A stretch of DNA of 64,000 nt from a virus (taxonomy: Duplodnaviria; Caudoviricetes). The stretch is from the IMG/VR virus record IMGVR_UViG_3300010338_000470, one strand, 5' to 3'. Under the pieces are notes generated by a model. It was not told the DNA's origin. It saw only the letters and a program-made list of their open reading frames with translations, and did no database searches. Positions 16,087-33,390 of the stretch are shown here, piece by piece. How positions within the stretch are numbered: position 1 is the first letter of the stretch; the number at the start of each line of letters is the position of its first letter. The translations under genes were made by a program, and so were the position numbers.

Positions 16087-16133
16087 GAAGAGTATTGTAA
16101 CAGCTCTGTCTTCGTTTTGAAACGAAACTGTAA

Positions 16134-18348: not shown

Positions 18349-18376
18349 GCCTGTAAGGTAACACCTGCTTCTTCAA

Positions 18377-19030
18377 CTAGCCAACACGTGGAACGGAGGC
18401 ATAGCGGTCGAGAATGGCTTGCGCCCACTCAACCAGATCTTCGACCCGCTGGCCCCGCTGGTGCGACGTGCACCACAGCTCCAGATTCTCAAGTCGATTG
18501 TCATCTCGAAGTCCATTCTTGTGATGGACGTCTTCTTCAGGCAAAAGGCACCGACCAAGGTGGCGGGCCATCACGTAGCGGTGCTCGAATACCAAGTTGT
18601 GAGGCCCTGTTGCCATGTCGATGAATGGGTCGTCCGGAATCAACCTGCGTCGGATGTACCCTTGACTGGTCTTATGGGTGCCACCCTTCCAGTTCCAGCT
18701 CTTTTCACCTTGGTACTTGCCCGCCTCGTATCCGCCTCGTCGTCGCTGGACGCCATGATTCTCCAGGACGTACCAAATTGACTTCGGGTTGGCGTCTAGG
18801 CGCTCACCGATTGAAGCTAGGGTTTCGCCAGCCTCGTAGGCATCGCAAATGTCGAGCTGCTGCGCCAGCGAGGGCTTAAAGGGTGGTCGTGTCACTCTGT
18901 GAGGCGACAGGCCAGGGATTCTCTTGCACGCCTTACAGTAGAACTGAAGCCCATCCTTGGATGCCGCCCTGCGGTGGAACTCTGAACGGGGCTTCGTCTC
19001 CCCACACTTCCTACAGCTCTTGGACTCCAT
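18377..19030 (-). CDS. HNH endonuclease (Zn finger + HTH + HNH_3)
   Basis: EHRYVMARHLGR.L...EDVHHKNGLRDDNRLENL. Confidence 0.9.
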   Translation of the reverse strand: MESKSCRKCGETKPRSEFHRRAASKDGLQFYCKACKRIPGLSPHRVTRPPFKPSLAQQLDICDAYEAGETLASIGERLDANPKSIWYVLENHGVQRRRGGYEAGKYQGEKSWNWKGGTHKTSQGYIRRRLIPDDPFIDMATGPHNLVFEHRYVMARHLGRCLLPEEDVHHKNGLRDDNRLENLELWCTSHQRGQRVEDLVEWAQAILDRYASVPRVG

Positions 19031-19478
19031 TCTTGGAGTCTAGCACAAGATCGGGCAAGCAGATCCCGCGCAGGTGATCCATCTCGTGCTGGATGATCCT
19101 TGCCTTCCAGCCCGTGGCCCCCTCCTGGTGTCTAACGCCTTCAACGTCAGTATAGGTCCACGCTATCTCCGTAGACCTCTCCACTGAGAACTCCTTGCCT
19201 GGAACAGAAAGACATCCCTCCCCCGCCCTAACAGTCGAGTTGGCAGAATAAAGGATCTCGGGATTCAAGGCAAGAAAGGACTCCCCGGAATCGTGAAGAT
19301 AGAAGGCCCTAATGGGCATCCCAACCTGTGGAGCGGCCACAGCAACGCCACCGAGGACGAGACAGGCAAACCGAAGGTCAAAGGCAAGCTTTTCTACATC
19401 GACAGCCTCAACATCTACTGGACTGGACTTCTCGCTCAGTATCCGATTCGGATACTTGACCACCCTCAGGACCTTCAC
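19011..19478 (-). CDS. def: Peptide deformylase
   Basis: GVAVAAPQVG, EGCLSVP, QHEMDHLRG. Confidence 0.93.
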   Translation of the reverse strand: MKVLRVVKYPNRILSEKSSPVDVEAVDVEKLAFDLRFACLVLGGVAVAAPQVGMPIRAFYLHDSGESFLALNPEILYSANSTVRAGEGCLSVPGKEFSVERSTEIAWTYTDVEGVRHQEGATGWKARIIQHEMDHLRGICLPDLVLDSKNGVQEL

Positions 19479-19726
19479 GCTTCAGCCATTTCCGGGTGAC
19501 GTTCAATGAACTCGTCGTATCCGTCACGGTACTGTTCCACCGTGTTGGACACAACCCACCCCTTCTTGGTGTTAGAAAGAGACTGCATTCGAATGAAGTA
19601 AACCCTGGGCTTCCCAGGCTTTTCTTCTGTATCATCTTGGAATCGCATAGAGTGCCAGGCCCGACTCGAACGGGCATATCTTGGGTTGCAACCAAGCGCA
19701 TTGAGCCATCTCTGCCACTGGCACAA
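19475..19726 (-). CDS. Hypothetical protein
   Basis: Stop overlaps the def start; start uncertain. Confidence 0.4.
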   Translation of the reverse strand: MCQWQRWLNALGCNPRYARSSRAWHSMRFQDDTEEKPGKPRVYFIRMQSLSNTKKGWVVSNTVEQYRDGYDEFIERHPEMAEA

Positions 19727-19807
19727 GTTGAGCCAGTTTTGCCACTTGGCTTAGGTGGCCCCACGGTCAACGACCAGAAAACCGTGAGGACTGGGCTTAT
19801 TCCCAGC

Positions 19808-19882
19808 TGGAGCGACATGGGAGAGTCGAACTCCCTTACCCGACTTGGAAGGACGGTGCATCACCAAAAATGCTTATGTCGC
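19808..19882 (-). tRNA. tRNA-Gly (TCC)
   Basis: Cloverleaf with CCA. Confidence 0.92.
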
Positions 19883-19900
19883 ATGTGTCTAGCTTCTAGG

Positions 19901-20215
19901 TTAGCTTAGTTGAATGGCTACTGAGAAGTTGTGAAGGACAACGCAAAGGTAGACAAGAGAAATGACGAGTAGGCCGAAACCTATGAAGTCCGAATCCAGC
20001 TTGTACCCCGCCCAGACGATCAACCCGACTGCCAGCATCTTGATGCAGATGGCAAGCATCGGGGAGTGAATGAACAGGTCTGCAACGGGGTTGGCCTCAG
20101 ATCCACCGAAGGTAAAGACGAGGTGAGTGCTGAAAACATCCAAGATGTTCAACACTGCCAAAGTGAACCCTCTGGCCAGGATGGATTCCTGTGTTCTAGA
20201 CCTCAAGGCTTCCAA
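19901..20215 (-). CDS. DUF5658-like membrane protein
   Basis: LNILDVFST..GGSEANP..K..N pattern, three TM segments; TTG start after AGGAG. Confidence 0.7.
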   Translation of the reverse strand: MEALRSRTQESILARGFTLAVLNILDVFSTHLVFTFGGSEANPVADLFIHSPMLAICIKMLAVGLIVWAGYKLDSDFIGFGLLVISLVYLCVVLHNFSVAIQLS

Positions 20216-20233
20216 CTCTACTCCTTTGATGAG

Positions 20234-20315
20234 TGCGAGTGGTGGGACTCGAACCCACACATTTTTCAATAGCGGGGTTTAAATCCGCCGCGTCTGCCTA
20301 TTCCGCCACACTCGC
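20234..20315 (-). tRNA. tRNA-Leu (TAA)
   Basis: Cloverleaf with variable arm. Confidence 0.9.
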
Positions 20316-20316
20316 T

Positions 20317-20395
20317 TGGCCCCCCCGGTAGGACTCGAACCTACAACGGACGCTGGGTAGAAGCCAGCCGCTCTAATCCATTGAGCTACGGAGGG
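20317..20395 (-). tRNA. tRNA-Arg (TCT)
   Basis: Cloverleaf with CCA. Confidence 0.92.
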
Positions 20396-20590
20396 AAGAT
20401 TCAGATTCTTCGACTAACGGCCCATCAGTAATCCCAGGTAACCTGGGGCTATGGACGACGCAACGAAAATCCAGTTCGACCACAAAATCCACTTCAGCTG
20501 CAAGTGGTCGAATGTCTGACGCCATCAAGCATCCACACTCTGGATGTCGCGATTGTTTCCTGAGCACGCAGTGAACCATACCAGCGACAC

Positions 20591-20890
20591 CTACGACTGT
20601 AGAAGATCCAAAACTTCTCCCAGGGGGGCTGCACCCACAATGCGAGCGACCTCTTGCCCTTCCTTGAGAAACAGGAGAGAGGGAACCTTCTGCACCTTGA
20701 ACCTCTTGCAAAGACCTATCTCCATCTCCGCGTTTACCTTGAACAAGGGCGTCCCAGACGTGGCCTCAGCCTCTTCCAGGACAGGATTCATGGCCTTGCA
20801 GGGCGAGCACCACTCGGCCCAGAAGTCAACCAGGACAGCGTCCTGGGTCTTGATGCTTTCATCAAATGAGTCAGAAGTAAGTTCAACCAT
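20591..20890 (-). CDS. trxA: Thioredoxin
   Basis: VLVDFWAEWCSPCK..VPSLLF. Confidence 0.92.
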   Translation of the reverse strand: MVELTSDSFDESIKTQDAVLVDFWAEWCSPCKAMNPVLEEAEATSGTPLFKVNAEMEIGLCKRFKVQKVPSLLFLKEGQEVARIVGAAPLGEVLDLLQS

Positions 20891-20966
20891 GGTGCTTGAT
20901 GCAGGAATCGAACCTGCGGCCTCTTCCGTGTCGAGGAAGCGCTCTAACCGTCTGAGCTAACCAAGC
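20890..20966 (-). tRNA. tRNA-Val (GAC)
   Basis: Cloverleaf with CCA. Confidence 0.93.
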
Positions 20967-20971
20967 ATTAG

Positions 20972-21031
20972 TGGAGGAGCAAGGGAATCGAACCCTCGTA
21001 GATCGTCATCATACGTTGCCAAACGCTCCCC
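20972..21031 (-). ncRNA. Miniature tRNA-like RNA (acceptor + T arm, no anticodon arm)
   Basis: GGGGAGC..GAGGG-TTCGATT-CCCTT-GCTCCTCCA, 60 nt. Confidence 0.55.
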
Positions 21032-21033
21032 AA

Positions 21034-21397
21034 GGTGGAGGCGGAGGGAATCGAACCCTCGTCTTCCAGAGTGTACCACACGATTGTACAACCATTCCAG
21101 ATAAAGCGTTGGTCGCTTCGCAGCAAGCTGCTACCCGGACTTTCCCGAAAGTCGACGGTCTTTCCCGTTGTCAGCAGTCTTTCCAGCTGTCCTCCCCTAC
21201 TTCTGTTGCCAGGCTGTAGGAAACAGGCCCCGTGCGACCTCGCGGCTCACGTTGACTCTAGCCACTCAACCGTTAGGTCAGGCGGCTAGAGCGAACTGCT
21301 CGTTGGCGGTTCTTGTTGGTTCCCCGTTTAACGAGTCTGAGAAACTCGGGTTGAATCTAAGTGCTACAGATTCCGAAATCGAAACCTTGTCGCCCCC
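21034..21397 (-). ncRNA. ssrA: tmRNA; tag (A)ANEQFALAA at 21278-21307
   Basis: 5' GGGGGCGACAAGGTTTCGA, G3-U70, 3' TTCGATTCCCTCCGCCTCCACC; tag ORF ending LAA*. Confidence 0.96.
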
Positions 21398-21419
21398 TAG
21401 CTTCCGACAAGCGGAATAG

Positions 21420-21501
21420 TCCCCCAAGAGGGAGTCGAACCCTCACGCCCGAAGGCACCCGGTCCTAAGCCGGGCGCGTCTACCAGTTCCGCCATCGGGG
21501 G
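21420..21501 (-). tRNA. tRNA-Leu (TAG)
   Basis: Cloverleaf with variable arm. Confidence 0.92.
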
Positions 21502-21502
21502 A

Positions 21503-22077
21503 AATGAGTGTAGGGGAGCTAGGTTCAGGCTCCCCTGTCGCCACACTTTACCGGCCTGCTTAGACCTCGTGGCTTTGATCACACATCCAGGAACTACCCT
21601 TGGTTGTTATGGGGTTTGTGCGTATCCCCTTAGCCCCTACAGACTTCTTGGCATCAGCCCTGGCCGGGGCCTCATACCAGGGGGAGCGGAAATCTCCCCC
21701 TTCCCTTTACCAACGAACCTTACTCAAGGGTCCGTCCTGGGATATAACCCTACGTCTGTAGGTTAGCTCAGCATTTCCGTTTCACAGTTCAAAATGTGAA
21801 ATTCCCTATGCGTAGCGCTGAGCAGGCAGGGAGCACACCTCCTTGCGAGAGATGAGCTTTGCCACTCCGCTTTACCACCCCGATCACCCTGGCAAGGCTT
21901 TTCGAGGCTCTCTTTTCACATGCAGTGCCAGCCACATGCTCCCCCGGATTCCAGAGATGCTATCCCCGCTAAGGGTCCCTGGCGTCCGGTTCGTGGAGAT
22001 TTGGACCTAACGGCCCCGCAGAATCCTGGGAAGGATCCCGCGTATCGCAGGTTGCCCTGCTATCCGGTACTCCTCAA
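21503..22077 (-). ncRNA. Large structured ncRNA, ROOL-like (~575 nt)
   Basis: No credible ORF; many long helices with 5'/3' closure; own promoter; motifs ATGTGGCTGGCA, GATACGC, GAGGTCTAA and TAAAGTGT resemble ROOL as I recall it. Confidence 0.65.
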
Positions 22078-22128
22078 CCGTCTAACTTTTCAAGTGTCGT
22101 CCGTGGCCCCGTGGGGGCAACGGAGATA

Positions 22129-22157
22129 ACTCTACCATGTCAGTCTTCAACTTTCAA
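22129..22157 (-). promoter_or_regulatory. Sigma70-type promoter for the ROOL-like RNA/tRNA/tmRNA transcript
   Basis: TTGAAA-17 bp-(TGG)TAGAGT. Confidence 0.7.
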
Positions 22158-22307
22158 GCGAAGGCTCCAATGTTAGCTGCATCACCAAGGCTTGCAGCCA
22201 AACGCTCAGGGCATCCAGCATGCCGCCATCAAGTGGCGTTCCGTGCAGAAGTGGATGCACTAGGCTCAGGAGGCCCAAGGCCACCAAAAACAACTTGTAG
22301 GTTCGCA

Positions 22308-22382
22308 TGGAGCCGGTTGCAGGACTCGAACCCGCCCACACTGCTTACAAGGCAGTTGCTCTTCCTGATGAGCTAAACCGGC
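22308..22382 (-). tRNA. tRNA-Thr (TGT)
   Basis: Cloverleaf with CCA. Confidence 0.92.
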
Positions 22383-22388
22383 AAAACT

Positions 22389-22480
22389 TCCCAAGATGGG
22401 GAGGACTCGAACCTCCTCCTCCCCCCACCAAAGCTGACATGCAAGGGGGGTGTGCTTCCAATACACCACATATCCTGGGA
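22389..22480 (-). ncRNA. tRNA-like element with an 18-nt anticodon loop
   Basis: Normal D arm and T arm; C6/G6 stem enclosing TTGCATGTCAGCTTTGGT; irregular acceptor stem. Confidence 0.55.
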
Positions 22481-22694
22481 GCAGGTAAAGGATTTCAGAG
22501 ATGGTTCCACTGGAACATCACAATCCTCCCCCTTCCCTTACATCACAGCTAGTCCTGATTGCCTGTTGGGCCTTTAACCCAACTGGTTTCTTGTGCCTGT
22601 CAGCGTGATACAACCAGTTTTCACTGAGGTTCTTGAAAGGGTTCAGACTGGTATTTGCTCCAGTCTCCCCACCTCCTACTACCCGATACCAAAG

Positions 22695-22766
22695 CACCCT
22701 CGGAAGGACTCGAACCTTCAACTTCCTCGTTCGTAGCGAGACACTCTTCCATTGAGTTACGAGGGT
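22695..22766 (-). tRNA. tRNA-Arg (ACG)
   Basis: Cloverleaf. Confidence 0.92.
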
Positions 22767-22771
22767 TTAAG

Positions 22772-22853
22772 CGGAGCGAGAGGGATTCGAACCCCCAACC
22801 CTTGACGGGCCACCGTTTTCAAGACGGATTGGCACCCCAATGCCGGTCGCTCC
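22772..22853 (-). tRNA. tRNA-Ser (TGA)
   Basis: Cloverleaf, long variable arm, G73. Confidence 0.9.
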
Positions 22854-22894
22854 AAACTGGCTGTCGCCAGTCTACCTTGGCGATCTACGGTTAG

Positions 22895-22979
22895 CGGAAC
22901 ACCGAGGACTCGAACCCCACCCCTTGCGGGGCGCATTCCTTAGCAGGGAAGCGCGGCAAGCCTTACCGCTTGATGTTCC
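22895..22979 (-). tRNA. tRNA-Ser (GCT)
   Basis: Cloverleaf, long variable arm, G73. Confidence 0.9.
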
Positions 22980-23062
22980 AGAATGAATGCGCTGCCAGCG
23001 CTTTCCGTTGTGCACCGAAGTGCATGCAGGCCGACGGGGCACCACCATAAAATCTAGGCTTC

Positions 23063-23294
23063 GATAGTCGGGGGCGATACCCATCACTGATGGGTCATCC
23101 CACACCAACTTGAAGAAATCTACACAATCATCAACAGAACGTCCCTGAAGGTACATCTCTATACACTTGTGGACGAGAGTCCCAAAGGATGCTGCTGCCG
23201 ATTGAAGTTCTACAACGTCAGGATGCTCTTGTGCCAGCTTGTACTGTAGATTGCACTCTTGAAACTTTTTGAGTAGCGACGGATTGAACTTCAC
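23063..23294 (-). pseudogene. N-terminal fragment of a PD-(D/E)XK (RecB/Cas4-like) exonuclease
   Basis: MKFNPSLLKKFQECNLQYKL..AASFGTLVHKCIE, then runs into non-coding/tRNA sequence before any catalytic motif. Confidence 0.65.
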
Positions 23295-23602
23295 CAAAAA
23301 TCCCTCGCTGTGATAACTGATTCCCATCCATCGTATTCAGAAATGAGATAAGGCCCGTCAACCTCTACCACCTCTAAATCATCAGCCCCACCCGTGTGAA
23401 AGTGTTTCAAACCCAAATCAACCATCATCTGGATGATCAGATCATGGTGAGGGCCACTCCTTTGGCATAAATCCTTTGGGTTGCCACCCGACTCAATGAA
23501 GTCAATGATAGGCCGGTACTCAGCGATCTCTTTCCGCTTATCATCTGGTGCCCAGGTCGACCATCCAGCACCATAGCCTGTACTTACTAAAATCTTCGTC
23601 AC
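23291..23602 (-). CDS. Hypothetical phage protein
   Basis: KILVSTGYGAGWSTW..ISEYDGWESV; overlapping start/stop with neighbours. Confidence 0.75.
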   Translation of the reverse strand: MTKILVSTGYGAGWSTWAPDDKRKEIAEYRPIIDFIESGGNPKDLCQRSGPHHDLIIQMMVDLGLKHFHTGGADDLEVVEVDGPYLISEYDGWESVITARDFW

Positions 23603-23901
23603 ATCTTCTCCAAAAGAATCAACAGAAACTGGATCTCAGCATCTGAACACTCCAACACATTCACGAGCCTAGCGAACACGTTCGCTGCCGGGAAGCGAGT
23701 CGGAGTGATCGTGATATCGAAATCACGCATGCTCCCATCCTCTAGAAGGAAGCTCAAGGAAACATCCGTTGGATACGGCTCCTCCGTTCCAGCCCATCTC
23801 TCGTTGATGTACGTCTCGCTGAATCCAAGGAAAGCCTTCTGAATCACCTCGGCAACATCACTACTGAACAGTTCCCCGTCGTGCGATAACTTGTTTCCCA
23901 T
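23599..23901 (-). CDS. Hypothetical protein
   Basis: Leaderless -10 upstream; overlaps the next gene. Confidence 0.65.
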   Translation of the reverse strand: MGNKLSHDGELFSSDVAEVIQKAFLGFSETYINERWAGTEEPYPTDVSLSFLLEDGSMRDFDITITPTRFPAANVFARLVNVLECSDAEIQFLLILLEKM

Positions 23902-23983
23902 GCCGCCAACGTAGCACCCACTTCTACGTATAGGGCAGCCCTCCCCATCCTTGAGGTCGAGAGTGGTGCTACAGAACGTTCAG

Positions 23984-24066
23984 CGGTAAGAGGAGTACTC
24001 GAAACCCATGCCTAGCGACACGATCCGTTTTCGAAACGGTCCCCAGGCCTCCTGGGTTCACTTACC
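23984..24066 (-). tRNA. tRNA-Ser (CGA)
   Basis: Cloverleaf, long variable arm. Confidence 0.85.
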
Positions 24067-24070
24067 GGAG

Positions 24071-24157
24071 CGGAACACCGAGGACTCGAACCCCATGCCA
24101 TTTTTCAGACACCAACTTCTTTCCAGGAAGTGCCGACGCCTAGTCGGTTGATGTTCC
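24071..24157 (-). tRNA. tRNA-Ser (GGA)
   Basis: Cloverleaf, long variable arm. Confidence 0.9.
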
Positions 24158-24231
24158 ATATGTTCGCTTCATCCTGCGCTGATACTCCCGTTGGTACTCA
24201 CGCTCTACTGCTGGATCTGAGAATGGTATGA

Positions 24232-24591
24232 TCAGGCAGCCACCCGACGACTCAAGCCGGTGGTGTCGCCACCTCGCTTGTGACGCTTGGCGTCAGCGAA
24301 GGTCCTGACCGGGTTCCTCTTACGGATAGGGCTACACCCACAGGAATCGAAAAGGCCACGTGTCGTGCCATTGTTGGTCATGACATACAGCTTCTTCCAT
24401 TGACCCTTCTGGCTCTGGCGTGGGGCTGTAAAGTCGCGGCCCATGTTGAGCCCCTGCTTCTGACACTTCAGACAACACATTGTGCCGGTCTGGGTATGCT
24501 CACCATACTGGGAGCGCGGACCTTTCCAGGCGATGCGACAATCGAAACAAGCGTAAACGCTTCGATAGTAGTTGTAACTGTAGCGGCACAT
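24232..24591 (-). CDS. Cys-rich hypothetical protein
   Basis: YACFDCR..CLKC..MGRDFTAP..FDSCGC. Confidence 0.7.
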   Translation of the reverse strand: MCRYSYNYYRSVYACFDCRIAWKGPRSQYGEHTQTGTMCCLKCQKQGLNMGRDFTAPRQSQKGQWKKLYVMTNNGTTRGLFDSCGCSPIRKRNPVRTFADAKRHKRGGDTTGLSRRVAA

Positions 24592-24615
24592 ACCACTACA
24601 GTATCACATTCGGTT

Positions 24616-24765
24616 TCAGGCGATAGCCTTAACCTCCAAGACCTCCACTTCTGCCAGCTCATAATCTTCAAGCTGGCAAAGAATCCCGTATCTGATGACG
24701 GCTTCGTCAGGAGTCGAAGCCCTGACGACTATCGGCCCATTCGGGCCATCCAAATGCCATTCCAT
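24616..24765 (-). CDS. Small hypothetical protein
   Basis: MEWHLDGP..; AAGGA RBS. Confidence 0.5.
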   Translation of the reverse strand: MEWHLDGPNGPIVVRASTPDEAVIRYGILCQLEDYELAEVEVLEVKAIA

Positions 24766-24783
24766 GGCTATTTCCTTTCCGGA

Positions 24784-24859
24784 TGGGGCGACTGAGGAGA
24801 TTCGAACTCCCACTAACAGGGACACAACCTATCGTGCTAGCCATTACACTACAGCCGCC
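24784..24859 (-). tRNA. tRNA-His (GTG)
   Basis: G-1:C73, CCA. Confidence 0.93.
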
Positions 24860-24900
24860 ATGACTGATTTTCAAAATTTGCACCTCGTACAGGTGCATCA

Positions 24901-24973
24901 TGGTCCCCTCGGAAAGAATTGAACTCTCGTAAGCAAGTTTCGAAGACTCGCCACCGGCTCCACCGGCAAGGGG
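24901..24973 (-). tRNA. tRNA-Arg (TCG), aberrant D arm
   Basis: CGAGT-CT TCG AA-ACTTG, CCA. Confidence 0.82.
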
Positions 24974-25103
24974 ATGGCCCACCTTACGCAAGGGTTTGGG
25001 CGGGTACTGGCCTGCGATCCTGAACCCACAACTCGGGTTTGGTCCTTGCGCCAGGATTCTTCAGACTTCACCAGTATCGCTGGCTGTTGAAATCTGAAGT
25101 TCG

Positions 25104-25177
25104 CTGGAGTGGCAGGTCTCGAACCTGCAAATCCCTGATTCAGAGTCAGGTGGGTCTACCAGTTCCCCTACACTCCA
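25104..25177 (-). tRNA. tRNA-Gln (CTG)
   Basis: U1-A72, G73 cloverleaf. Confidence 0.92.
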
Positions 25178-25323
25178 ATGGCCCCTGCTTGCCTCCGGGG
25201 CGGATGGCCGCAGAAGAAGGTCCTGGGGCCGGTCTCCTAAACCCCAGGACCCTCTCTGCACGATGAGCCTAAGTGGCGATGGCCACTTGGTGCATTTAGC
25301 GCCACAGGCCCAAGCCTGTAGGT

Positions 25324-25450
25324 CCAAGCCAAGTCATATCTAGCTTCCTTGGCCTATGGGGATACCGCTAGCCCCAAAGGAGCGACAAGCACTCCTCTTA
25401 GCGGAAACCAATCCTAGCTGGTTGGCCAGGGAGTTCCTGGACTTGCTTGG
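25324..25450 (-). ncRNA. Unnamed pseudoknotted RNA candidate
   Basis: Closing helices CCAAGC-AAGTC/GACTT-GCTTGG and CCTGGCC/GGCCAAGG; loop TAGCGG complementary to upstream CCGCTA. Confidence 0.5.
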
Positions 25451-25467
25451 ATTCGGTTCCCACGAAC

Positions 25468-26013
25468 TTAACCGGAGATCGCCTCAGCTTGAAGGTTGTC
25501 GACACCGAAGAGTGGCTTCAGCAAGACTCCACAGTCCGCCAGGTTGTCAAAACCTCCCACTTGACGATCGATCACACAAAGAGCGCAATCCACGGCAGCC
25601 CCCAAGTGACGAAGGTCGCCAACTGAGGTAATGATCTGACCGCCTGAAGTTACGACATCCTCGATAACTAGAGTCTGCCTTCCTTCTACATTAAACCCCT
25701 CCACCAAGCGTTCTGTTCCGTAGGCCTTGGCCTCCTTCCGCACGAACGCCACCGGAAGGTCGGTTTCCAAGGATAACCCAACAGCGATAGGAATCCCGCC
25801 CATCTCCAGTCCAGCTAAACACTCGGTCTCATCGGGGATGAGCGAGACTAGGGCAGAACAGATACGTCGCAATAGTTCCGGGTCCGATTCAAATTGATAC
25901 TTGTCGAAGTATCGATCAGACGTGGACCCAGAGCGAAGGGTGAAGGTACCCACCGTTTCGCACCTATTGCTTAGTTGCGATCCAAGATGCTGCAAACTGT
26001 TTGTCGCCATCAA
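25468..26013 (-). CDS. pyrE: Orotate phosphoribosyltransferase
   Basis: GTFTLRSG..YFDK, FVRKEAKAYG, LVIEDVVTSGG. Confidence 0.93.
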   Translation of the reverse strand: MMATNSLQHLGSQLSNRCETVGTFTLRSGSTSDRYFDKYQFESDPELLRRICSALVSLIPDETECLAGLEMGGIPIAVGLSLETDLPVAFVRKEAKAYGTERLVEGFNVEGRQTLVIEDVVTSGGQIITSVGDLRHLGAAVDCALCVIDRQVGGFDNLADCGVLLKPLFGVDNLQAEAISG

Positions 26014-26066
26014 TCTGCTTCTCTGGAGCGGTTACTTCGAGGGCTGATCCAGCGATCAGCCATTAG

Positions 26067-26142
26067 TGGCGGGAGAGGGATTTGAACCCTCGACCTCCTG
26101 CTTATGAGGCAGGCGAGCACATCCAGACTGCTCCACCCCGCT
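26067..26142 (-). tRNA. tRNA-fMet-like (CAT)
   Basis: 1:72 mismatch, GCGGGGTGGAGCAG, TTCAAAT T-loop. Confidence 0.88.
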
Positions 26143-26253
26143 ACGCAAACTATAGCACACTGGGGTCTTCACCCGATAATCTTGGCTCATAGACAACCAC
26201 GGAGAGAGGTATCCGCTAGGATTCAAGTGGAACCCATTCAGCGAAGGAAACCC

Positions 26254-27174
26254 ATGCCTTACTTGTCTCCCACCCAAGAAGAAATAGACCTAATGACCTC
26301 TCAGCTAAGCAGTCGTCTGGGAGATGCGGAAGCGAGGCTAGAGGCTCTTGAAATCCAAGTAGCAGATTTGCTGAACTCCAGTCAGCCATCCCCGATTACT
26401 CCAACCGAATGGGGTTACAACCTTACCAGCCCCACCAACCTTGAGTCGGTGGCACTCAACTTGGGTGACCCTCAGGTTGTCAGGCTCTTTTTCTCAGGTT
26501 CTCCCGGTTCAGGGGAACCAACCTGGGCTCTGGGTAAAACCGCTATCGTTAGCTTCAAGTTCAACCCGACTCAGGCCTTCCCGGCAGAGAAGCTGCGAGC
26601 CTTCCTGGCTTCCAAGCCAGCCAACGTGAAGGCCTACGTTTGCACCTATCATGAACCAGAAGGCAACATCAGAGCGTACCAATTCACGGCAGCGCAATAC
26701 CGTGACTTCGTCACAGCAACTACTTCCGTATGCCGGGAGTTCGAGAACTGTATCTCAACCCCCATCCTCATGCAATGGACCCTAGAGTCAGCCTCCGGAC
26801 GGAACGTAAACGACTATCTTGAAGGAGTCGAATACGATGTCCTCGGATGGGACGTTTACCCAAGACTAGGAACCATCAAGGACATCCAGGCTCAGCTAAA
26901 GTCCATTCACGACGAATCCGTCAAGAGGGGTAAGCCTTGGCTTATTGGTGAAGTGGGGGCCGTGAAGTACGTCGAAGGACGCCAGTACCCCCGCCCTTCC
27001 TACACTGAAGCAGATCGGGCTGTTTGGATGCTTAACACGGTAGCCCAGATCAAGGCTCTAGCTGTCCAACCTCTGGCGGTCTGCTGGTTCACTTACCCGA
27101 CCGATGGGCACCTCTACACTCTTGAATCAGCTGAGACGCAAAACGCCATGAAGCAAATTCTTGCCAACGGGTAA
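26254..27174 (+). CDS. Glycoside hydrolase, GH26/clan-A-like TIM barrel with N-terminal coiled coil
   Basis: YHEPE (acid/base), LGWDVY, WLIGEVG (nucleophile), VCWF. Confidence 0.72.
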   Translation: MPYLSPTQEEIDLMTSQLSSRLGDAEARLEALEIQVADLLNSSQPSPITPTEWGYNLTSPTNLESVALNLGDPQVVRLFFSGSPGSGEPTWALGKTAIVSFKFNPTQAFPAEKLRAFLASKPANVKAYVCTYHEPEGNIRAYQFTAAQYRDFVTATTSVCREFENCISTPILMQWTLESASGRNVNDYLEGVEYDVLGWDVYPRLGTIKDIQAQLKSIHDESVKRGKPWLIGEVGAVKYVEGRQYPRPSYTEADRAVWMLNTVAQIKALAVQPLAVCWFTYPTDGHLYTLESAETQNAMKQILANG

Positions 27175-27175
27175 G

Positions 27176-27526
27176 GTTGAGAAGCCCTGTAGCCGGAGTT
27201 TTGTCATTTAAGACCATCATCCATCTAGGAAGAAACCATCTCCCTCCCCCTCGCGGGGGTGCACCAACCCGGTCATAATGGGCCTGGCCGACCTAGACCT
27301 ATTTGGCTTACTACAGCTGAAGTTTACTCAGCCAGGAACATTACTGCCCTGCTGGGGGTCTCTTACACCCCCTCTTCCACCTACTGACCTGTGCCCTGAG
27401 GGCCATCGGCCGTCCGTTCGCTATGCACTTGTTGTCCTCTCGCGAGGCCCGGTTTAACCCGGCAGCTTTGCCATATGTAGCTCCGAACTTCCTCTACTTT
27501 CGCAGCGATGGTCCAGGCTTCTCAAC
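27176..27526 (-). ncRNA. rnpB: RNase P RNA (type A-like)
   Basis: P1 GTTGAGAAGCC/GGCTTCTCAAC; CR-I GAGGAAGTTCGGAGC; CR-V ACAAAACTCCGGCTA. Confidence 0.93.
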
Positions 27527-27531
27527 ACTAG

Positions 27532-27615
27532 TGTCGGTAGAGGGACTTGAACCCTCACGCCCCTAAGGGCACTAGCCCCTCAAGCTAGCGCGTATACCAA
27601 TTCCGCCATACCGAC
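27532..27615 (-). tRNA. tRNA-Leu (GAG)
   Basis: Cloverleaf with variable arm. Confidence 0.92.
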
Positions 27616-27620
27616 AAGTA

Positions 27621-27694
27621 TGGTCGAGATGGGGGGAATCGAACCCCCGTCATACGGTCCCAAACCGTAAGTTCTACCATTGAACTACATCTCG
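27621..27694 (-). tRNA. tRNA-Pro (TGG)
   Basis: Cloverleaf with CCA. Confidence 0.92.
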
Positions 27695-27751
27695 TAAGGA
27701 GGAGACCCCTCAGTCTCACCACTTTGACGTTGCGGGCAGGTGACGCCCGGA

Positions 27752-27827
27752 TGGTGCGGTATGCCGGATTCGAACCGACTGTCTTCTCGTTGGCAACGAG
27801 ACGCATCGCCAGCAATGCTTATACCGC
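27752..27827 (-). tRNA. tRNA-Gly (GCC)
   Basis: Cloverleaf with CCA. Confidence 0.9.
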
Positions 27828-27832
27828 CAAGG

Positions 27833-27908
27833 TGGAGCCCGCGAAGGGATTCGAACCCCTACTTTCTCGTTACGACGGAGACGTGCTAGCCATTAACACT
27901 ACGCAGGC
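27833..27908 (-). tRNA. tRNA-Thr (CGT)
   Basis: Cloverleaf, C31-C39 mismatch. Confidence 0.87.
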
Positions 27909-27909
27909 A

Positions 27910-27986
27910 TGGAGCCCCCAGGGAGAATCGAACTCACCTCTTGTAGCGTACCATGCTACCGTGCTATCCATTACCACTATGGAGGC
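27910..27986 (-). tRNA. tRNA-Thr (GGT)
   Basis: Cloverleaf with CCA. Confidence 0.9.
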
Positions 27987-27988
27987 CT

Positions 27989-28533
27989 GACAGTGATTGA
28001 GGCTCACTGTGGGCCTGAGAACTCTCCTACCCATGGCCTTGGGTCGCCTGATTTACCTAATATCCGACTTGACGGTACTTCCCCGCCCTTTTTCAGGCAA
28101 GCGCACGGATGGAACGAACACCCGCAGGGCCGAGCACATACGATACTACGTAGCTCCCCTCAATGTCGCTAGAGGTTTCTACCATTGTACCCCACCCGCT
28201 ACGCGATTGTGTAGCAAGCCTGGTAGCAACGCATGTGCCGGGTATCGCACATGTTACCCTAGCCGGTTTTTTGTTTTACCATGGATCAGCTGTATACATG
28301 CTCGGGTTAAGAGCCCTCGCCACTGTCCAAGTTCCGTGTGACCTTCACGTTCACGTAGTTGGCTAACGTTCCATGCCCGTTATTTAATATGCTCGTTCAA
28401 GCATAACCAACTACCGCTCTGAGCCTAAGATCTCTTTGAGGTCGGACTGTCCTCACCCTACAGATGTCTTAGCATCCCTGCACTGAACGGACTGGGAGCA
28501 CAACCCGTTCCTGATTGCCCCGAAGGGCTCTCA
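27989..28533 (-). ncRNA. Large structured ncRNA, GOLLD-like (~545 nt)
   Basis: Between tRNAs, no credible ORF; more than 12 helices plus loop-loop complementarity; A-rich linkers ATTAAATAAC and GGTAAAACAAAAAACCGG and a terminal TCTCAGGCC resemble GOLLD as I recall it. Confidence 0.6.
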
Positions 28534-28536
28534 TCG

Positions 28537-28607
28537 TTCTCCGCAGAGGAATCGAACCCCTAGCTTCTGGGCCAAAACCAGACGTGTTTCCGTTACACCA
28601 TCGGAGA
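28537..28607 (-). tRNA. tRNA-Gln (TTG)
   Basis: Cloverleaf. Confidence 0.88.
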
Positions 28608-28611
28608 ATAG

Positions 28612-28683
28612 TGGAGTCGCGGGGAATCGAACCCCGATCTTCTGGTTGCAAACCAGAGGTAATGGCCCTTATACGACGACCCC
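28612..28683 (-). tRNA. tRNA-Ala (TGC)
   Basis: G3-U70, A73. Confidence 0.92.
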
Positions 28684-28686
28684 AAT

Positions 28687-28760
28687 TGGTGCACCTACGA
28701 GGAATCGAACCTCGGTCAGTCGGATGTAAGCCGACCGCTCTCCCATTAAGCTATAGGTGC
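28687..28760 (-). tRNA. tRNA-Val (TAC)
   Basis: Cloverleaf with CCA. Confidence 0.92.
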
Positions 28761-28764
28761 TCGG

Positions 28765-28837
28765 TGCGGGCACCAGGGATTGAACCTGGGTCACGCAGAT
28801 ATAAGCTGCGTGGGGGCAACCAGCCCCCCCTACCCGC
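28765..28837 (-). tRNA. tRNA-Ile (TAT)
   Basis: CGCAG-CT TAT AT-CTGCG. Confidence 0.85.
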
Positions 28838-28852
28838 TAGATTCGACCACAG

Positions 28853-28936
28853 TGGGGGCGGTGGGATTCGAACCCACAACGGTCTTTCGACGCCGAGTTA
28901 AAAGCTCGGTCCCTTCAGCCATTCGGTCACACCCCC
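28853..28936 (-). tRNA. tRNA-Lys (TTT) with long variable arm
   Basis: CCGAG-CT TTT AA-CTCGG followed by a GTC-GAAA-GAC arm. Confidence 0.85.
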
Positions 28937-29385
28937 AGAAGGCCATAAGATCTGGCCCATTTGCGAACAGCATTATCGCTGACGCCGTACTTGCTAGCAA
29001 TAGCCACCCATGACATTGATGCAATCTCCTGCCTGAGAACTTCAGGAGAAGGTCTTTCAACCTTCCGGCTAGCTATCCTAGCACATCTATCTGAACAATA
29101 CAACTTGTTCTTCGTTGCCGTACCACACCGCATGCAATCAACAGTGGGTGCTGAGTGCTTCTCTTTGTGTTGATCGACACTAAGCACTTCTAAGTTGTCC
29201 AGAGCATTGTTTGTGCGATCTTCGTCAATGTGGTGGACATGTTCATCTTCAAGAAGTGGTCGACCGAGTGCTTGCTCCATCAGATATCGAGGATACGACT
29301 GGCTCGTATAAACCCCATCATCACTGATGAGCACGACGATTAGTCGTCCTTCTTTGCCGTTGGAATACGGACCGTAGACCCTCAT
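28927..29385 (-). CDS. HNH endonuclease with C-terminal HTH
   Basis: RYLMEQALGRPL..EHVHHIDEDRTNNALDNL; KYGVSDNAVRKW. Confidence 0.9.
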   Translation of the reverse strand: MRVYGPYSNGKEGRLIVVLISDDGVYTSQSYPRYLMEQALGRPLLEDEHVHHIDEDRTNNALDNLEVLSVDQHKEKHSAPTVDCMRCGTATKNKLYCSDRCARIASRKVERPSPEVLRQEIASMSWVAIASKYGVSDNAVRKWARSYGLLGV

Positions 29386-29627
29386 GGTGAAACCTTCTTG
29401 CTGACTGGACGAATCCAGAGCGGAAGAGGAATCCAGATCCTCTCGTGGCCCTTGCCCTTGCCGAAGTCATGTTCGATCTGCACCTTATGTCTGCCCATGC
29501 AGGCGAACTTAGAACGACGTACGTTCCAATAGTGTTTTGCATTCAGAACCTTCTTGTGTTGACCTACCTTCTTATTGGCGGAAGGTACGGCGATGACTGA
29601 GAGCCATCCGGTTCTTTGGATGCGCAT
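29382..29627 (-). CDS. Basic hypothetical protein
   Basis: Stop overlaps the HNH start (ATGA). Confidence 0.55.
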   Translation of the reverse strand: MRIQRTGWLSVIAVPSANKKVGQHKKVLNAKHYWNVRRSKFACMGRHKVQIEHDFGKGKGHERIWIPLPLWIRPVSKKVSP

Positions 29628-29642
29628 GGTACCTTTCTACGA

Positions 29643-29719
29643 TGGCACGGGGGGAAGGAATCGAACCCTCGCTACACTTGGGTCAGAACCAAGCTGGCAA
29701 ACCAGCATGCCACCCCCGT
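29643..29719 (-). tRNA. tRNA-Gln (CTG), second copy
   Basis: CTTGG-TT CTG AC-CCAAG, CCA. Confidence 0.85.
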
Positions 29720-29720
29720 A

Positions 29721-29834
29721 TGGTGGTTCCGGCCGGAATCGAACCGGCAACCCCCGTCGGGGCGACATCCATGTATCTGACTACAGAAATCGGGTGCTAG
29801 GGCGGGCTTTCCCCCGCAATCCTTTCGGACCACC
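29721..29834 (-). ncRNA. Oversized tRNA-like RNA (~114 nt)
   Basis: Perfect T arm GCCGG-TTCGATT-CCGGC, 3' ACCA, enlarged D, anticodon and variable arms. Confidence 0.6.
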
Positions 29835-29839
29835 CGTAG

Positions 29840-29913
29840 TGGGCATACTCGGATTCGAACCGAGAATCCTGGAAGTTTGAGTTCCGGTGCTTTGCCAGTT
29901 AGCACATATGCCC
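29840..29913 (-). tRNA. tRNA with CAA anticodon (Leu) but a short variable loop
   Basis: GGAA-CT CAA AC-TTCC, 74 nt. Confidence 0.82.
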
Positions 29914-29914
29914 T

Positions 29915-30008
29915 AAGTTTCTCTTGCTATTCTTCCAAGTAGGCGTTTGAGCGTGACATGCGCTGTCTGGGTGGAAGCCAGGTGCTCTGCCAATTGGGCT
30001 AGACAGAC
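29915..30008 (-). pseudogene. 5' half of tRNA-Gly(TCC) fused to an HNH C-terminal remnant
   Basis: GTCTGTC-TAGCCCAATTGGCAGAGCA-CTGG CT TCC AC CCAG, then a frame reading ACHAQTPTWKN; no T arm. Confidence 0.6.
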
Positions 30009-30009
30009 A

Positions 30010-30096
30010 TGGTGCCGGAGGAGGGATTCGAACCCCCTAAGCTCAAAAGCAACTGATTTACAGTCAGCCCCAACTCACCGTCGTTGGCGCTCCGGC
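30010..30096 (-). tRNA. tRNA-Tyr (GTA)
   Basis: Cloverleaf, variable arm, CCA. Confidence 0.9.
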
Positions 30097-30108
30097 GTGG
30101 AGCGATAG

Positions 30109-30409
30109 GTACGATGGTGTGCCACATCCATGGTTCGATGTAGCGGTTAGCCCACTGCTTGTGCAGACCCAAAGGCTTGCCCTTGTCGTCAAGCGGGCCG
30201 AGCTGTGATAGCTCTCGCACACCCTCAACGCAGGCATCCCTCATGCGCAGGATGATCTCCTCAGCCTTGGCACGATCCTCGTCGGTCATGGGCGTTACCG
30301 CCTGCATGCCCGGTTGGTTATACCTATAGTCCACCGGCAAGGCTGGATCATCTTCGATCCTGCTTAGCTGCTTCCACGTTGGGATGGCTCGACTAGATGC
30401 CGAGTTTCG
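30109..30409 (-). pseudogene. thyX: Internal fragment of ThyX (FAD-dependent thymidylate synthase)
   Basis: RNSASSRAIP...NQPGMQA...LHKQWANRYIEPWMWHTIV; no start, no C-terminus; preceded by a tRNA 5' half (30410-30442). Confidence 0.75.
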
Positions 30410-30442
30410 AAGCCACTCTGACCAGACTGAGTTACACCCCCG

Positions 30443-30517
30443 TGGCGCTCTATCCGGGACTCGAACCCGATTCTCAAGCTTGACAAGCTTGGGTGGTAAC
30501 CCATACACCAATAGAGC
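30443..30517 (-). tRNA. tRNA-Asp (GTC)
   Basis: Cloverleaf, G73, CCA. Confidence 0.92.
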
Positions 30518-30519
30518 AG

Positions 30520-30768
30520 GTGCCCCCTCTCCCCTTGCTAGCAGGAGATGACTTAGGAGGACTTTTAGGTCAGTCTGGTTTCCGGTACCCTGACGAGTAT
30601 CAGTCGACAAGGCTGCCTTGCAGCGCTACAGGGACAGGCGCGTTACCTGCCATCACCGGCACACCCCTGACTTTTGGGTGCTTCGCTCTTGTAGAAGTGG
30701 ACGGGTTGGACGTTGGCGTCTCAGCCACAAGAGTACGTCGCCCCATTACCGCTGAGTCGACCCGTCAT
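30520..30768 (-). ncRNA. Unnamed pseudoknotted RNA candidate (~250 nt)
   Basis: GACGGGT/ACCCGTC, CTCAGC/GCTGAG, crossing CTCTTGT/ACAAGAG, CCGGT/ACCGG, CCCTG/CAGGG. Confidence 0.5.
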
Positions 30769-30780
30769 AGATCTATCAAT

Positions 30781-31146
30781 CTAGCCTTTCCACAAGAAGT
30801 CGGGGAAGGGCTTGAAGGTCTTGTCTTCTAAGCTATCTAGACTCCAGATCCCTTGTGGTGGGGTTAGACCCGTTCGATTGAGGCGCTCATTGACTGCCTC
30901 ATTGAATGCCTCCTTGTTCCAGTAGACACCGCTGTCGCCAGAGTACGAAAACTCTGACAGACGTATGTGTTGACCGGGGTGAGGAACAGCTTCTTCAAGG
31001 GAAGCCCTCTGGTCGAACTTGAACTTGAGTTCAATTGTCCCGGAGAGATCCACGGCTGTCACAGCTTGAGTCCCATCCTCCAAAGTTTCAACCTTCGTCA
31101 CCCAGAGGGTGCCGGGAGCGTATACCATCGTAGACATGGGGGGCAT
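30781..31146 (-). CDS. Hypothetical protein
   Basis: 121 aa ORF after tRNA-Asn. Confidence 0.6.
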   Translation of the reverse strand: MPPMSTMVYAPGTLWVTKVETLEDGTQAVTAVDLSGTIELKFKFDQRASLEEAVPHPGQHIRLSEFSYSGDSGVYWNKEAFNEAVNERLNRTGLTPPQGIWSLDSLEDKTFKPFPDFLWKG

Positions 31147-31169
31147 CTTAACACCCCTAACTACAGAAG

Positions 31170-31242
31170 CTCTGGGACCAGGATTCGAACCCGGAACTTT
31201 CGGGTAACAACCGAACGCGTTCGCCATTTACGCCATCCCAGA
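31170..31242 (-). tRNA. tRNA-Asn (GTT)
   Basis: U1-A72, G73. Confidence 0.92.
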
Positions 31243-31293
31243 ATGGTTCCGGTCTCTCCCGGATGTCAAACCACTCACGCAGGTTTCGCCTCG

Positions 31294-31367
31294 TGGTTCC
31301 TCTCAGATTCGAACTGAAGCCTCTGGGTCTTCACGCCAGCGTGCCATTCCAACTACACCAAAGAACC
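31294..31367 (-). tRNA. tRNA-Phe (GAA)
   Basis: Cloverleaf, C31-C39 mismatch. Confidence 0.85.
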
Positions 31368-31368
31368 A

Positions 31369-31453
31369 TGGTACTCCTGGGGGGAGTCGAACCCCCACAC
31401 CCGAAGGCAACTGAGTTTGAATCAGCCGCGTCTGCCAATTCCGCCACAGGAGC
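31369..31453 (-). tRNA. tRNA-Leu (CAA), canonical
   Basis: Variable arm, CCA. Confidence 0.92.
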
Positions 31454-31463
31454 ATGACTGAAG

Positions 31464-31532
31464 CGCCCTTGCCCAGAGTCGAACTGGGTCAACTTGCTTA
31501 GGAGGCAAATGTCGGTATCCCACCGCAAGGGC
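31464..31532 (-). tRNA. tRNA-Arg (CCT), aberrant D arm
   Basis: TTTGC-CT CCT AA-GCAAG, 69 nt. Confidence 0.8.
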
Positions 31533-31542
31533 AGTTGTTTAG

Positions 31543-31614
31543 CACCCCCACGGGGATTCGAACCCCGTTCTCGGACTTGAAAGGACCACGTCTTAACCCA
31601 TAGACCATGGGGGC
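31543..31614 (-). tRNA. tRNA-Glu (TTC)
   Basis: Cloverleaf. Confidence 0.9.
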
Positions 31615-31649
31615 AAGTTTGTGTGGTCCGGTTTTCAGAGCCACACTAG

Positions 31650-31722
31650 TGGGTGTGAGAGGATTTGAACCTCCACCAATCGGGTAAGAGCCGATCATGC
31701 TAGCCGTTAACACCACACACCC
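31650..31722 (-). tRNA. tRNA-Lys (CTT)
   Basis: Cloverleaf. Confidence 0.92.
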
Positions 31723-31881
31723 ATGAGTTGACCGCATAAAGTGCACTTGCGGCCAACTTATCATCGCGTAGGGCATTTGAGCCCCCCACTCGGCTCCGGC
31801 TGTCTATTCGCTGTTCCTCGGCAGCTAGCCGCCCTAACCCCTAGGAGGATGAATCCTGTGGGAGGGGAGGATTTTCTTGCG

Positions 31882-31954
31882 TCGGCATGGAGAGAGTTGA
31901 ACTCCCATTTCGACCTTATCAGAGTCGCGTCTTAAACCGTTGGACCACATGCCG
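31882..31954 (-). tRNA. tRNA-Ile (GAT)
   Basis: Cloverleaf. Confidence 0.9.
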
Positions 31955-32004
31955 TAGTGTCGGATTGGGATGACTTTCCCTCAAGAAGTCCGACAGCTCC
32001 TTTG

Positions 32005-32091
32005 TGGGGGTGAGAGGATTCGAACCTCCTGAAGCCTTTCGGGCCAGCAGGGTTACAGCCTGCCCCAACTCTCCAACGTTGGCGCACCCTC
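32005..32091 (-). tRNA. tRNA-Tyr (GTA), second copy
   Basis: Cloverleaf, variable arm. Confidence 0.88.
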
Positions 32092-32094
32092 ATA

Positions 32095-32340
32095 GGTGCG
32101 CGGATTCTCTCTGGATACCGCGTAGGTCACACAACTTTGCCATGTGTCGGCTCCGATACTCTATCGGTAGTACCTGGCCAACTTGCGAAGAAGGTCAGGA
32201 TGGAGGTTCCGTGCCGGTGGGAAGGAGTGTACGTCCTGCCCATTCGCTCCGACTCTAGTTCCCCTTTTCGGGGCGCTACCCCGACATCGAGTCCAATTTC
32301 TGTCGACTTACTCCAGGCTTGGACTAGGCCTAGAACTGGA
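32095..32340 (-). ncRNA. Unnamed multi-hairpin RNA with a kissing loop
   Basis: Adjacent hairpin loops AGTCCAA and TTGGACT are complementary; at least 6 further hairpins. Confidence 0.5.
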
Positions 32341-32343
32341 TCA

Positions 32344-32418
32344 TGGCACCCGATGGGAGAGTCGAACTCCCGCTTCTTGACTGAGAATCAAGCGTCACTA
32401 CCGCTAGACCAATCGGGC
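32344..32418 (-). tRNA. tRNA-Glu (CTC)
   Basis: Cloverleaf with CCA. Confidence 0.92.
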
Positions 32419-32569
32419 ATGCGAGGGAGTGTCACCTCCCCCGTTGCAGAAGTTGTCTCTCTTCTCTTGCCTGATTGGATATGGTCCAGTCAGGAGGACC
32501 CTTCACCCACATCAAAGTCGGGTGTCAACGCTTTCGCGACCACTTACTATCTTTGGGCCAAAGCCCTAG

Positions 32570-32640
32570 CACGCCCTGGAGGAATCGAACCCCCGCCTTA
32601 ACTGGTTTGGAAGCAGTTTGGTCACCATGACCTAAGGCGT
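32570..32640 (-). tRNA. tRNA-Trp (CCA)
   Basis: Short D arm, C31-C39 mismatch, G73. Confidence 0.82.
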
Positions 32641-32649
32641 ATATGTTGT

Positions 32650-32723
32650 TGGCAGGAGTGCAGAGAATCGAACTCTATCGACAAGGGTTTTGGAGACCCT
32701 CCGGCTACCTCAGCCTCACTCCT
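32650..32723 (-). tRNA. tRNA-Trp (CCA), second copy
   Basis: A1-U72, G73, CCA. Confidence 0.9.
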
Positions 32724-33057: not shown

Positions 33058-33064
33058 GTTGCTG

Positions 33065-33093
33065 ACCTTACCACGCATTTCTTCATTTGTCAA
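33065..33093 (-). promoter_or_regulatory. Promoter at the head of the tRNA array (leaderless HNH)
   Basis: TTGACA-17 bp-TAAGGT, ATG 7 nt downstream. Confidence 0.75.
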
Positions 33094-33334: not shown

Positions 33335-33390
33335 AACGCTTGGCTACAGTCCGTGTTTTCCGGGCCACTTCGTCTACTAGAATTGAGATC

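Follow-up and report, generated by a model that had tools for sequence, protein, structure and literature searches.

Between a phage-type promoter and a tRNA-Leu gene lies a stretch of about 620 nt, and the question that it raises is whether it is made into an RNA with a role of its own or is simply the long front end of a tRNA operon. A first-pass annotation had described it as a ROOL-like giant structured RNA with its own promoter, in a high-GC, probably actinobacterial phage. The window, by which we mean the whole stretch of DNA analyzed (64 kb), comes from a large tailed phage that has not been cultured. It has a G+C content of ~54%, and its minus strand carries nearly all of the genes, among them those for a tape-measure protein, an intein-bearing ribonucleotide reductase, DnaB- and UvrD-type helicases, an endolysin, and a peptide deformylase. 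The same ~150-kb phage is present in JGI, ENA, and Logan assemblies, with contigs of up to 151 kb and 154 index blocks.

An RNA island at ~19.6-32.7 kb holds 39 of the window's 40 tRNA genes together with genes for a tmRNA and a class A RNase P RNA, the last of these 5 kb upstream of the 620-nt stretch. The tRNA-Leu and tmRNA genes that the first-pass annotation had placed directly downstream of the stretch are indeed there. The main features of the locus are as follows.

21033-21397, minus strand: tmRNA with the tag ANEQFALAA (Rfam 99.8 bits, ARAGORN), in the same putative transcription unit as the 620-nt stretch
21419-21501, minus strand: tRNA-Leu(TAG) (ARAGORN; Rfam 52.7 bits), whose 5′ maturation would set the 3′ end of the stretch
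21502-22121, minus strand: putative 620-nt non-coding transcript segment, from the proposed start G22121 to the base before tRNA-Leu
22129-22157, minus strand: promoter, with TTGAAA as the -35 element, a 17-nt spacer containing GAAGA, and a TG-extended -10 element, TAGAGT
27174-27524, minus strand: class A RNase P RNA (Rfam 145 bits, full model 1-367)

The reading that we prefer, with slightly less than even confidence, is that the stretch yields a free-standing structured phage RNA, made together with a translation-rescue and tRNA set, and that this RNA would be released as the 5′ part of an ncRNA-tRNALeu-tmRNA-tRNAVal-thioredoxin transcript.

Coding content, promoter, and proposed transcription unit

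The stretch is non-coding. The longest ORF in the proposed RNA (21503-22130) has at most 69 aa, and that in a wider slice (21400-22320) at most 79 aa. Using a codon-usage score trained on 13 long genes of the phage, with 11 real small genes held out, we obtained log-odds of -0.10 to -0.35 for the minus-strand candidate ORFs versus 0.00 to 0.44 for the real small genes, and a PHROG search with ten ORF fragments of the stretch gave no match at E<=0.1. The earlier statement that no credible ORF is present is thus borne out by ORF content, codon usage, and the PHROG search. When ORFs of at least 90 aa and RNA genes were masked, an 806-nt gap remained at 21502-22307, one of three large gaps in the island.

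These results bear on the suggestion that the stretch is a decayed gene remnant or a small protein gene, for example the 48-codon GTG ORF at 21935-21789, and that its hairpins are incidental, which we consider improbable. A GGGGGAG run does stand 3-4 nt before the GTG of the 48-aa ORF, and neighboring cassettes come and go among variants of the phage, but every candidate ORF had a negative codon-usage score, below all real small genes tested, none of the fragments matched a PHROG, and the 48-aa ORF spans only a quarter of the stretch. That the sequence acts at the DNA level, as a replication origin, packaging site, or recombination hotspot rather than an RNA gene, is extremely improbable in our judgment. 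A long ORF-free stretch with many inverted repeats could be read that way, but its G+C content (0.57) is above the genome mean of 0.54, it is without iterons or meaningful direct repeats, the cumulative GC skew does not turn here, and the stretch abuts RNA genes in the same orientation, behind a promoter.

The TTGAAA-17-TAGAGT promoter reported upstream of the stretch is present at 22157-22129 and is the only sigma-70-like site in 20800-22800; the island as a whole shows no excess of them (7 found versus 9.1 expected). Alignment of the TG-extended sites gave a shared spacer motif, and the pattern GAAGA-N6-TGKTA-N3-T occurs at 4 sites in 64 kb versus 0.04 expected by chance, a comparison whose P value is optimistic because three of the four members were already in view when the pattern was drawn up. 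Independent support for the family comes from strand, intergenic position, and register with start codons: all four sites are intergenic and in minus-strand orientation, with starting positions of 16113, 18374, 22148, and 33084, and in the three sister promoters 6-7 nt separate the end of the -10 element from an ORF's ATG, at 16086, 18348, and 33057. The members of the family are listed here, each conforming to TTGnnn, 2-3 nt, GAAGA, N6, TGKTAnnnT.

16094-16113, minus strand: sister promoter, before the ATG at 16086
18355-18374, minus strand: sister promoter, before the ATG at 18348
22129-22148, minus strand: the member upstream of the 620-nt stretch
33065-33084, minus strand: sister promoter, before the ATG at 33057

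At the last of these sites, translation probably begins at the ATG at 33057, and the annotation of the GTG at 33111 as the start is probably an error.

This spacing suggests that the mRNAs made from the three sister promoters are leaderless, and leaderless mRNAs are common in Actinobacteria. Register with these three leaderless-type promoters places the transcription start of the stretch at about G22121, where neither a usable start codon nor an ORF follows. The evidence for a promoter is therefore stronger than could have been known when the locus was first described, and the stretch is probably made as RNA.

Between 22129 and the tRNA-Leu, tmRNA, and tRNA-Val genes we found no terminator-like site on the minus strand; the next one, at 20507-20489, comes after the thioredoxin gene. 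The stretch would therefore form the first 620 nt of a polycistronic RNA. We propose that transcription from the phage-typical promoter at 22157-22129 would start at ~22121 and continue through tRNA-Leu(UAG), the tmRNA, tRNA-Val, and the thioredoxin gene, and that RNase P cleavage at the 5′ end of tRNA-Leu would free a discrete RNA of ~620 nt, 22121-21502. We infer the start site, the release by RNase P, the fold, and the stability of this RNA from the arrangement described here and from predicted structure. The transcript that it would share with the tmRNA offers a concrete handle for experiments.

The same evidence can be read in a second way. The stretch may be a passive leader or spacer at the 5′ end of the transcript, copied into RNA for no other reason than that the promoter of the tRNA-Leu, tmRNA, tRNA-Val, and thioredoxin genes lies 620 nt upstream, degraded after the RNase P cut, and at most tuning processing. 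A passive long leader of the tRNA-Leu/tmRNA operon is a serious rival to the free-standing RNA, and the evidence for promoter and co-transcription applies to it equally, although on balance we judge it unlikely. A 620-nt idle leader would be out of character for this phage, since phages keep their genomes compact and the other three promoters of the family stand directly at start codons. The predicted fold and the conservation of the stretch, taken up below, bear on this rival as well.

Relation to ROOL, GOLLD, and tRNA leaders

Large ORF-free RNAs beside tRNA genes are known in phages, and ROOL, with a mean length of 581 nt, is found in phages and prophages near tRNA genes (PMC5737381; doi 10.1101/2024.12.08.627333). 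In these respects, the resemblance claimed for our locus holds: at ~620 nt the stretch is similar in length, and it is phage-borne, directly upstream of tRNA-Leu in a 40-tRNA phage island. Like ROOL, it is also without an associated protein gene or known function.

The resemblance does not extend to sequence or structure models. The ROOL model of Rfam 15 (RF03087, 574 positions, gathering score 99.1 bits; 4227 families in the release) gave no match at any threshold tried. At the gathering thresholds, cmscan placed neither ROOL nor any other large-RNA family in the stretch. With lax filters and E<=10 on a 941-nt slice (21380-22320), the leftover matches were noise, with E above 0.4, and those falling inside the stretch were to FinP and MIMT1. 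At E<=5 across the whole island (19000-33500), only tRNA and tmRNA families appeared in the neighborhood of the stretch. We also searched a published ROOL alignment for three motifs that the first-pass annotation had given as typical of ROOL. In the part of the alignment from the cryo-EM paper that was covered, GAGGUCUAA and GUGGCUGGCA are absent and UAAAGUGU has one incidental occurrence. ROOL, GOLLD, and the other known families are accordingly rejected by cmscan. Decayed tRNAs were likewise excluded at the level of models, with no weak tRNA match inside the stretch at E<=10.

It is very unlikely that a strongly divergent ROOL, GOLLD, or other known large RNA lies here below the detection of covariance models. 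Size and the phage and tRNA context do match the published description of such RNAs, but no match emerged among the 4227 Rfam 15 families, ROOL included, even at E<=10, and two of the three motifs searched for are absent from the part of the ROOL alignment covered. ROOL is known mainly from Firmicutes and Fusobacteria, whereas the host lineage of the present phage is probably Actinomycetota. ROOL self-assembles into an RNA-only octameric cage, and its six junctions and three pseudoknots are not traceable in the one sequence of our stretch.

GOLLD offers a second comparison, as it too is a large RNA of phage and bacterial tRNA arrays and has actinobacterial representatives. Work citing Morgado et al. 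(2020) reports GOLLD from Mycobacterium tRNA arrays; the RNA is in some cases joined covalently to tRNAs, and it is expressed in the course of lysis. Unlike our stretch, GOLLD is usually longer than 800 nt and has a universally conserved 3′ domain; in the scan of all 4227 Rfam 15 families, no match to this domain was found in the stretch.

The stretch also resembles the long leaders that RNase P removes from tRNA and tmRNA transcripts, in that it lies between a promoter and the first tRNA and would owe its 3′ end to RNase P. The 5′ leaders of tRNA and tmRNA operons are usually tens of nucleotides long, whereas the stretch has 620 nt, is enriched in stems, and is predicted to carry hairpins at both ends.

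Our best guess is that the 620-nt RNA would be analogous to GOLLD and ROOL of phage tRNA islands in context and not in sequence. It is an orphan and would form a class by itself. A bolder version of this idea, which we regard as doubtful, would make it the first known example of a new class of large phage RNA with no sequence relationship to ROOL or GOLLD: a hairpin-capped RNase P product that, like those two, would act as an RNA-only assembly, tied to the 40 tRNAs, tmRNA, and RNase P RNA of a ~150-kb actinobacterial phage that probably infects Acidimicrobiia. We treat the stretch as a single-sequence candidate, drop the ROOL label, and keep the claim modest.

Predicted fold of the 620-nt stretch

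All motifs quoted in the first-pass annotation were found on the minus strand where it had placed them, including TACCGG (22069-22064), CCGGTA (21554-21549), and GCAGG-GCAA-CCTGC (22060-22047), as well as the helices GCTCAGC/GCTGAGC, CCTACAGAC/GTCTGTAGG, GGGGGAG/CTCCCCC, and AGGGGAGC/GCTCCCCT. Perfect stems of at least 7 bp number 12, versus 5.3±2.3 in 1000 dinucleotide shuffles (P=0.01), a count that ranks it among the top 4% of the genome's windows. This enrichment argues against a passive leader.

Folding energy is less telling. The minimum free energy (MFE) of the 628-nt sequence 21503-22130 is -259.8 kcal/mol, with z = -3.5 against 20 shuffles, and the slightly shorter 21502-22124 has z = -3.0 against 40 shuffles. 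The RNase P RNA and the tmRNA encoded by the phage are on the same level (-3.0 and -3.1, respectively). Coding controls, however, ranged from +0.7 to -4.8, with two of the four reaching -4.6 and -4.8, and in a GC-corrected scan of all 600-nt windows of the genome, the stretch stood at only -1.6 sd. Given these controls and this genome-wide rank, stability alone proves nothing, and the MFE z-score was set aside as a sign of function, coding controls having scored equal or better. A stability that is unexceptional against coding controls and genome background is what a passive leader would show.

The best-supported elements of the predicted fold are listed below.

22106-22118, minus strand: 5′-proximal hairpin GCCCC-CAC-GGGGC, pair probability 1.00, 3 nt after the proposed start
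22097-22092 with 21548-21543, minus strand: long-range closing helix, ACACUU with AAGUGU, pair probability 0.92
21636-21762, minus strand: best-defined internal domain, 127 nt, closed by the 9-bp helix CCUACAGAC/GUCUGUAGG, helix probabilities 0.81-0.98
21512-21536, minus strand: 3′-terminal hairpin AGGGGAGC-CUGAACCUA-GCUCCCCU, pair probability 0.96, separated by 10 nt from the start of tRNA-Leu

In the internal domain, the 9-bp helix is predicted to enclose hairpins at 21736-21712, 21701-21679, and 21678-21650. Further high-probability helices are an 11-bp hairpin at 22042-22017 and a three-tier stem at 21998-21939, while the central 250 nt of the stretch are poorly defined, with a positional entropy of ~1 or above. 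The letters of the TACCGG/CCGGTA pair, which had been proposed to close the ends of the molecule, are present, but the pair appears in neither the MFE structure nor the ensemble, where ACACUU/AAGUGU is predicted instead. From the sequence, AAGUGU at 21548-21543 also has an alternative local partner, ACACU at 21511-21507. The MFE fold has several multistem junctions, as any 600-nt sequence would.

According to our proposal, the freed RNA would be capped by a stable hairpin at each end, 3 nt in from the 5′ terminus and 10 nt in from the 3′ terminus. Such hairpins would shield it from end-dependent decay, as one would expect for a long-lived RNA. In suggesting a protected product, they speak against a passive leader. 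Taken together, the predictions give weak evidence for an ornate fold, and the 'giant structured RNA' of the first-pass annotation is best regarded as a hypothesis. If the RNA is real and folded, it would extend large ORF-free RNAs of tRNA islands to a freshwater-type actinobacterial phage lineage, with a sequence that has no relationship to ROOL or GOLLD, and this would support the view that phages have repeatedly invented big RNAs alongside their tRNA sets.

The heptamer GGUAAAG has three copies inside the stretch among five minus-strand copies in 64 kb. It precedes both the 3′-terminal hairpin and the hairpin at 21701-21679, and at two of its sites in the stretch an AGGGG(G)AG hairpin comes next. 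We considered whether it marks three tandem modules of ~160 nt, and this was rejected; because the marked segments do not align, GGUAAAG is a curiosity and not a repeat architecture. A scan of IMG/VR for the triple motif gave at least 114 chance matches and no similarity.

Homologues, host, and other elements of the island

Searches for homologues returned only the phage itself. A blastn search of the stretch against 50,697 phage records (INPHARED/GenBank) gave no homologue, and there is no internal paralogue within the window. Exact 20-mers matched JGI metagenomes three times by chance, in high-GC bacterial coding DNA, exact 22-mers found nothing in GTDB genomes, and the matches obtained by BLAST against 401 Acidimicrobiia genomes, 20-46 nt in length, were all due to chance. 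Approaching the problem through neighboring genes was no more productive: IMG/VR relatives of the adjacent PDDEXK gene have only that gene in common with the phage and no RNA island, the UvrD and 177-aa proteins have no IMG/VR relatives, and relatives of the head protein in IMG/VR have neither the stretch nor tRNA arrays. Five IMG/VR records that share one homologous gene each with the phage have no copy of the stretch, and a search of IMG/VR for the tmRNA-tag pattern gave 0 matches. Among 5.8 billion proteins, the PDDEXK and 470-aa proteins matched only the query phage itself, and the thioredoxin matched the phage itself and then proteins of <=50% identity (next-best 49%), the named ones being bacterial.

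Within the phage population, the stretch was 100% identical in 8 of the 8 other assemblies compared. These identical copies include variants without the 1.7-kb PDDEXK cassette and variants with mosaic patches of 88-99% identity nearby; in one variant, a 1%-divergent mosaic patch lies at 16.9-17.8 kb, and the stretch is still identical. This identity carries little weight as a sign of constraint, because most of the flanking DNA is identical too, and since the variants are identical across the stretch, they give no covariation. A conservation that is demonstrable within one near-clonal phage population, and not beyond it, is compatible with a passive leader.

The population also shows an indel polymorphism at 22930-24608 (loci L258, L259, and L262), where some variants are without the cassette; it holds the PDDEXK nuclease and two small ORFs, with a junction near tRNA-Ser genes. 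Outside this region, the variants diverge only in mosaic patches (22816-22926, and 16875-17784 in L260), a pattern suggestive of recombination rather than drift.

The host is probably actinobacterial, judging from the tmRNA. Its tag, ANEQFALAA, is common to many Actinomycetota (Ilumatobacteraceae, Microthrixaceae, Acidimicrobiaceae, and Bifidobacterium) and also occurs in some Pelagibacterales and Victivallales; of the 120 loci compared (L127-L246), 97 have an identical 20-mer coding for the tag. The full-length phage tmRNA aligns with Acidimicrobiia tmRNAs at E ~1e-43 (nhmmer). As both the tag and the full-length molecule match Actinomycetota, chiefly Acidimicrobiia such as Ilumatobacteraceae, an actinobacterial host is plausible. 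The first-pass description of a high-GC, probably actinobacterial phage therefore stands as to the host and fails as to base composition, at 54% G+C.

The phage RNase P RNA (27174-27524) is complete and has a variant P4 strand, GAGGAAGUUCGGAGC. A blastn search with it against the 50,697 GenBank phage records gave no match, and a literature search on phage-encoded RNase P RNA found nothing relevant.

The island contains other elements of note. Between tRNA-Thr and tRNA-Gln, at 27987-28535 (minus strand), there is another ORF-free spacer, 549 nt long; its MFE has z = -4.3 against shuffles, and it matches no Rfam family and is not similar to the 21.5-22.1-kb stretch. On the plus strand, a 356-codon ORF (26104-27174) exactly fills the 1-kb gap between tRNA-Met and the RNase P RNA, with all of its neighbors in the opposite orientation. 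It has no Pfam match, gene callers give a 306-aa protein, and it could be an antisense gene, or the region could be a third large RNA with a chance open antisense frame. Among the tRNAs, ARAGORN calls a tRNA-Lys(TTT) at 28852-28936 (minus strand) that is unusually long for a Lys tRNA, at 85 nt, and a weak tRNA-like element at 22393-22475 (minus strand) scores 32.6 bits and is not called by ARAGORN.

LAGLIDADG homing-endonuclease inteins interrupt the class II ribonucleotide reductase and an 1807-aa protein (1641-6209 and 36252-41675, minus strand), the latter with at least two Hint/intein segments, and free-standing HNH endonucleases are encoded at 18377-19030, 28927-29385, and 54344-56221. 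In and around the RNA island, minus-strand auxiliary genes at 19011-19478, 20591-20890, 25468-26013, and 44249-45349 encode a peptide deformylase, a thioredoxin, a phosphoribosyltransferase-like protein, and a PAPS-reductase/DndC-like protein adjoining ParB.
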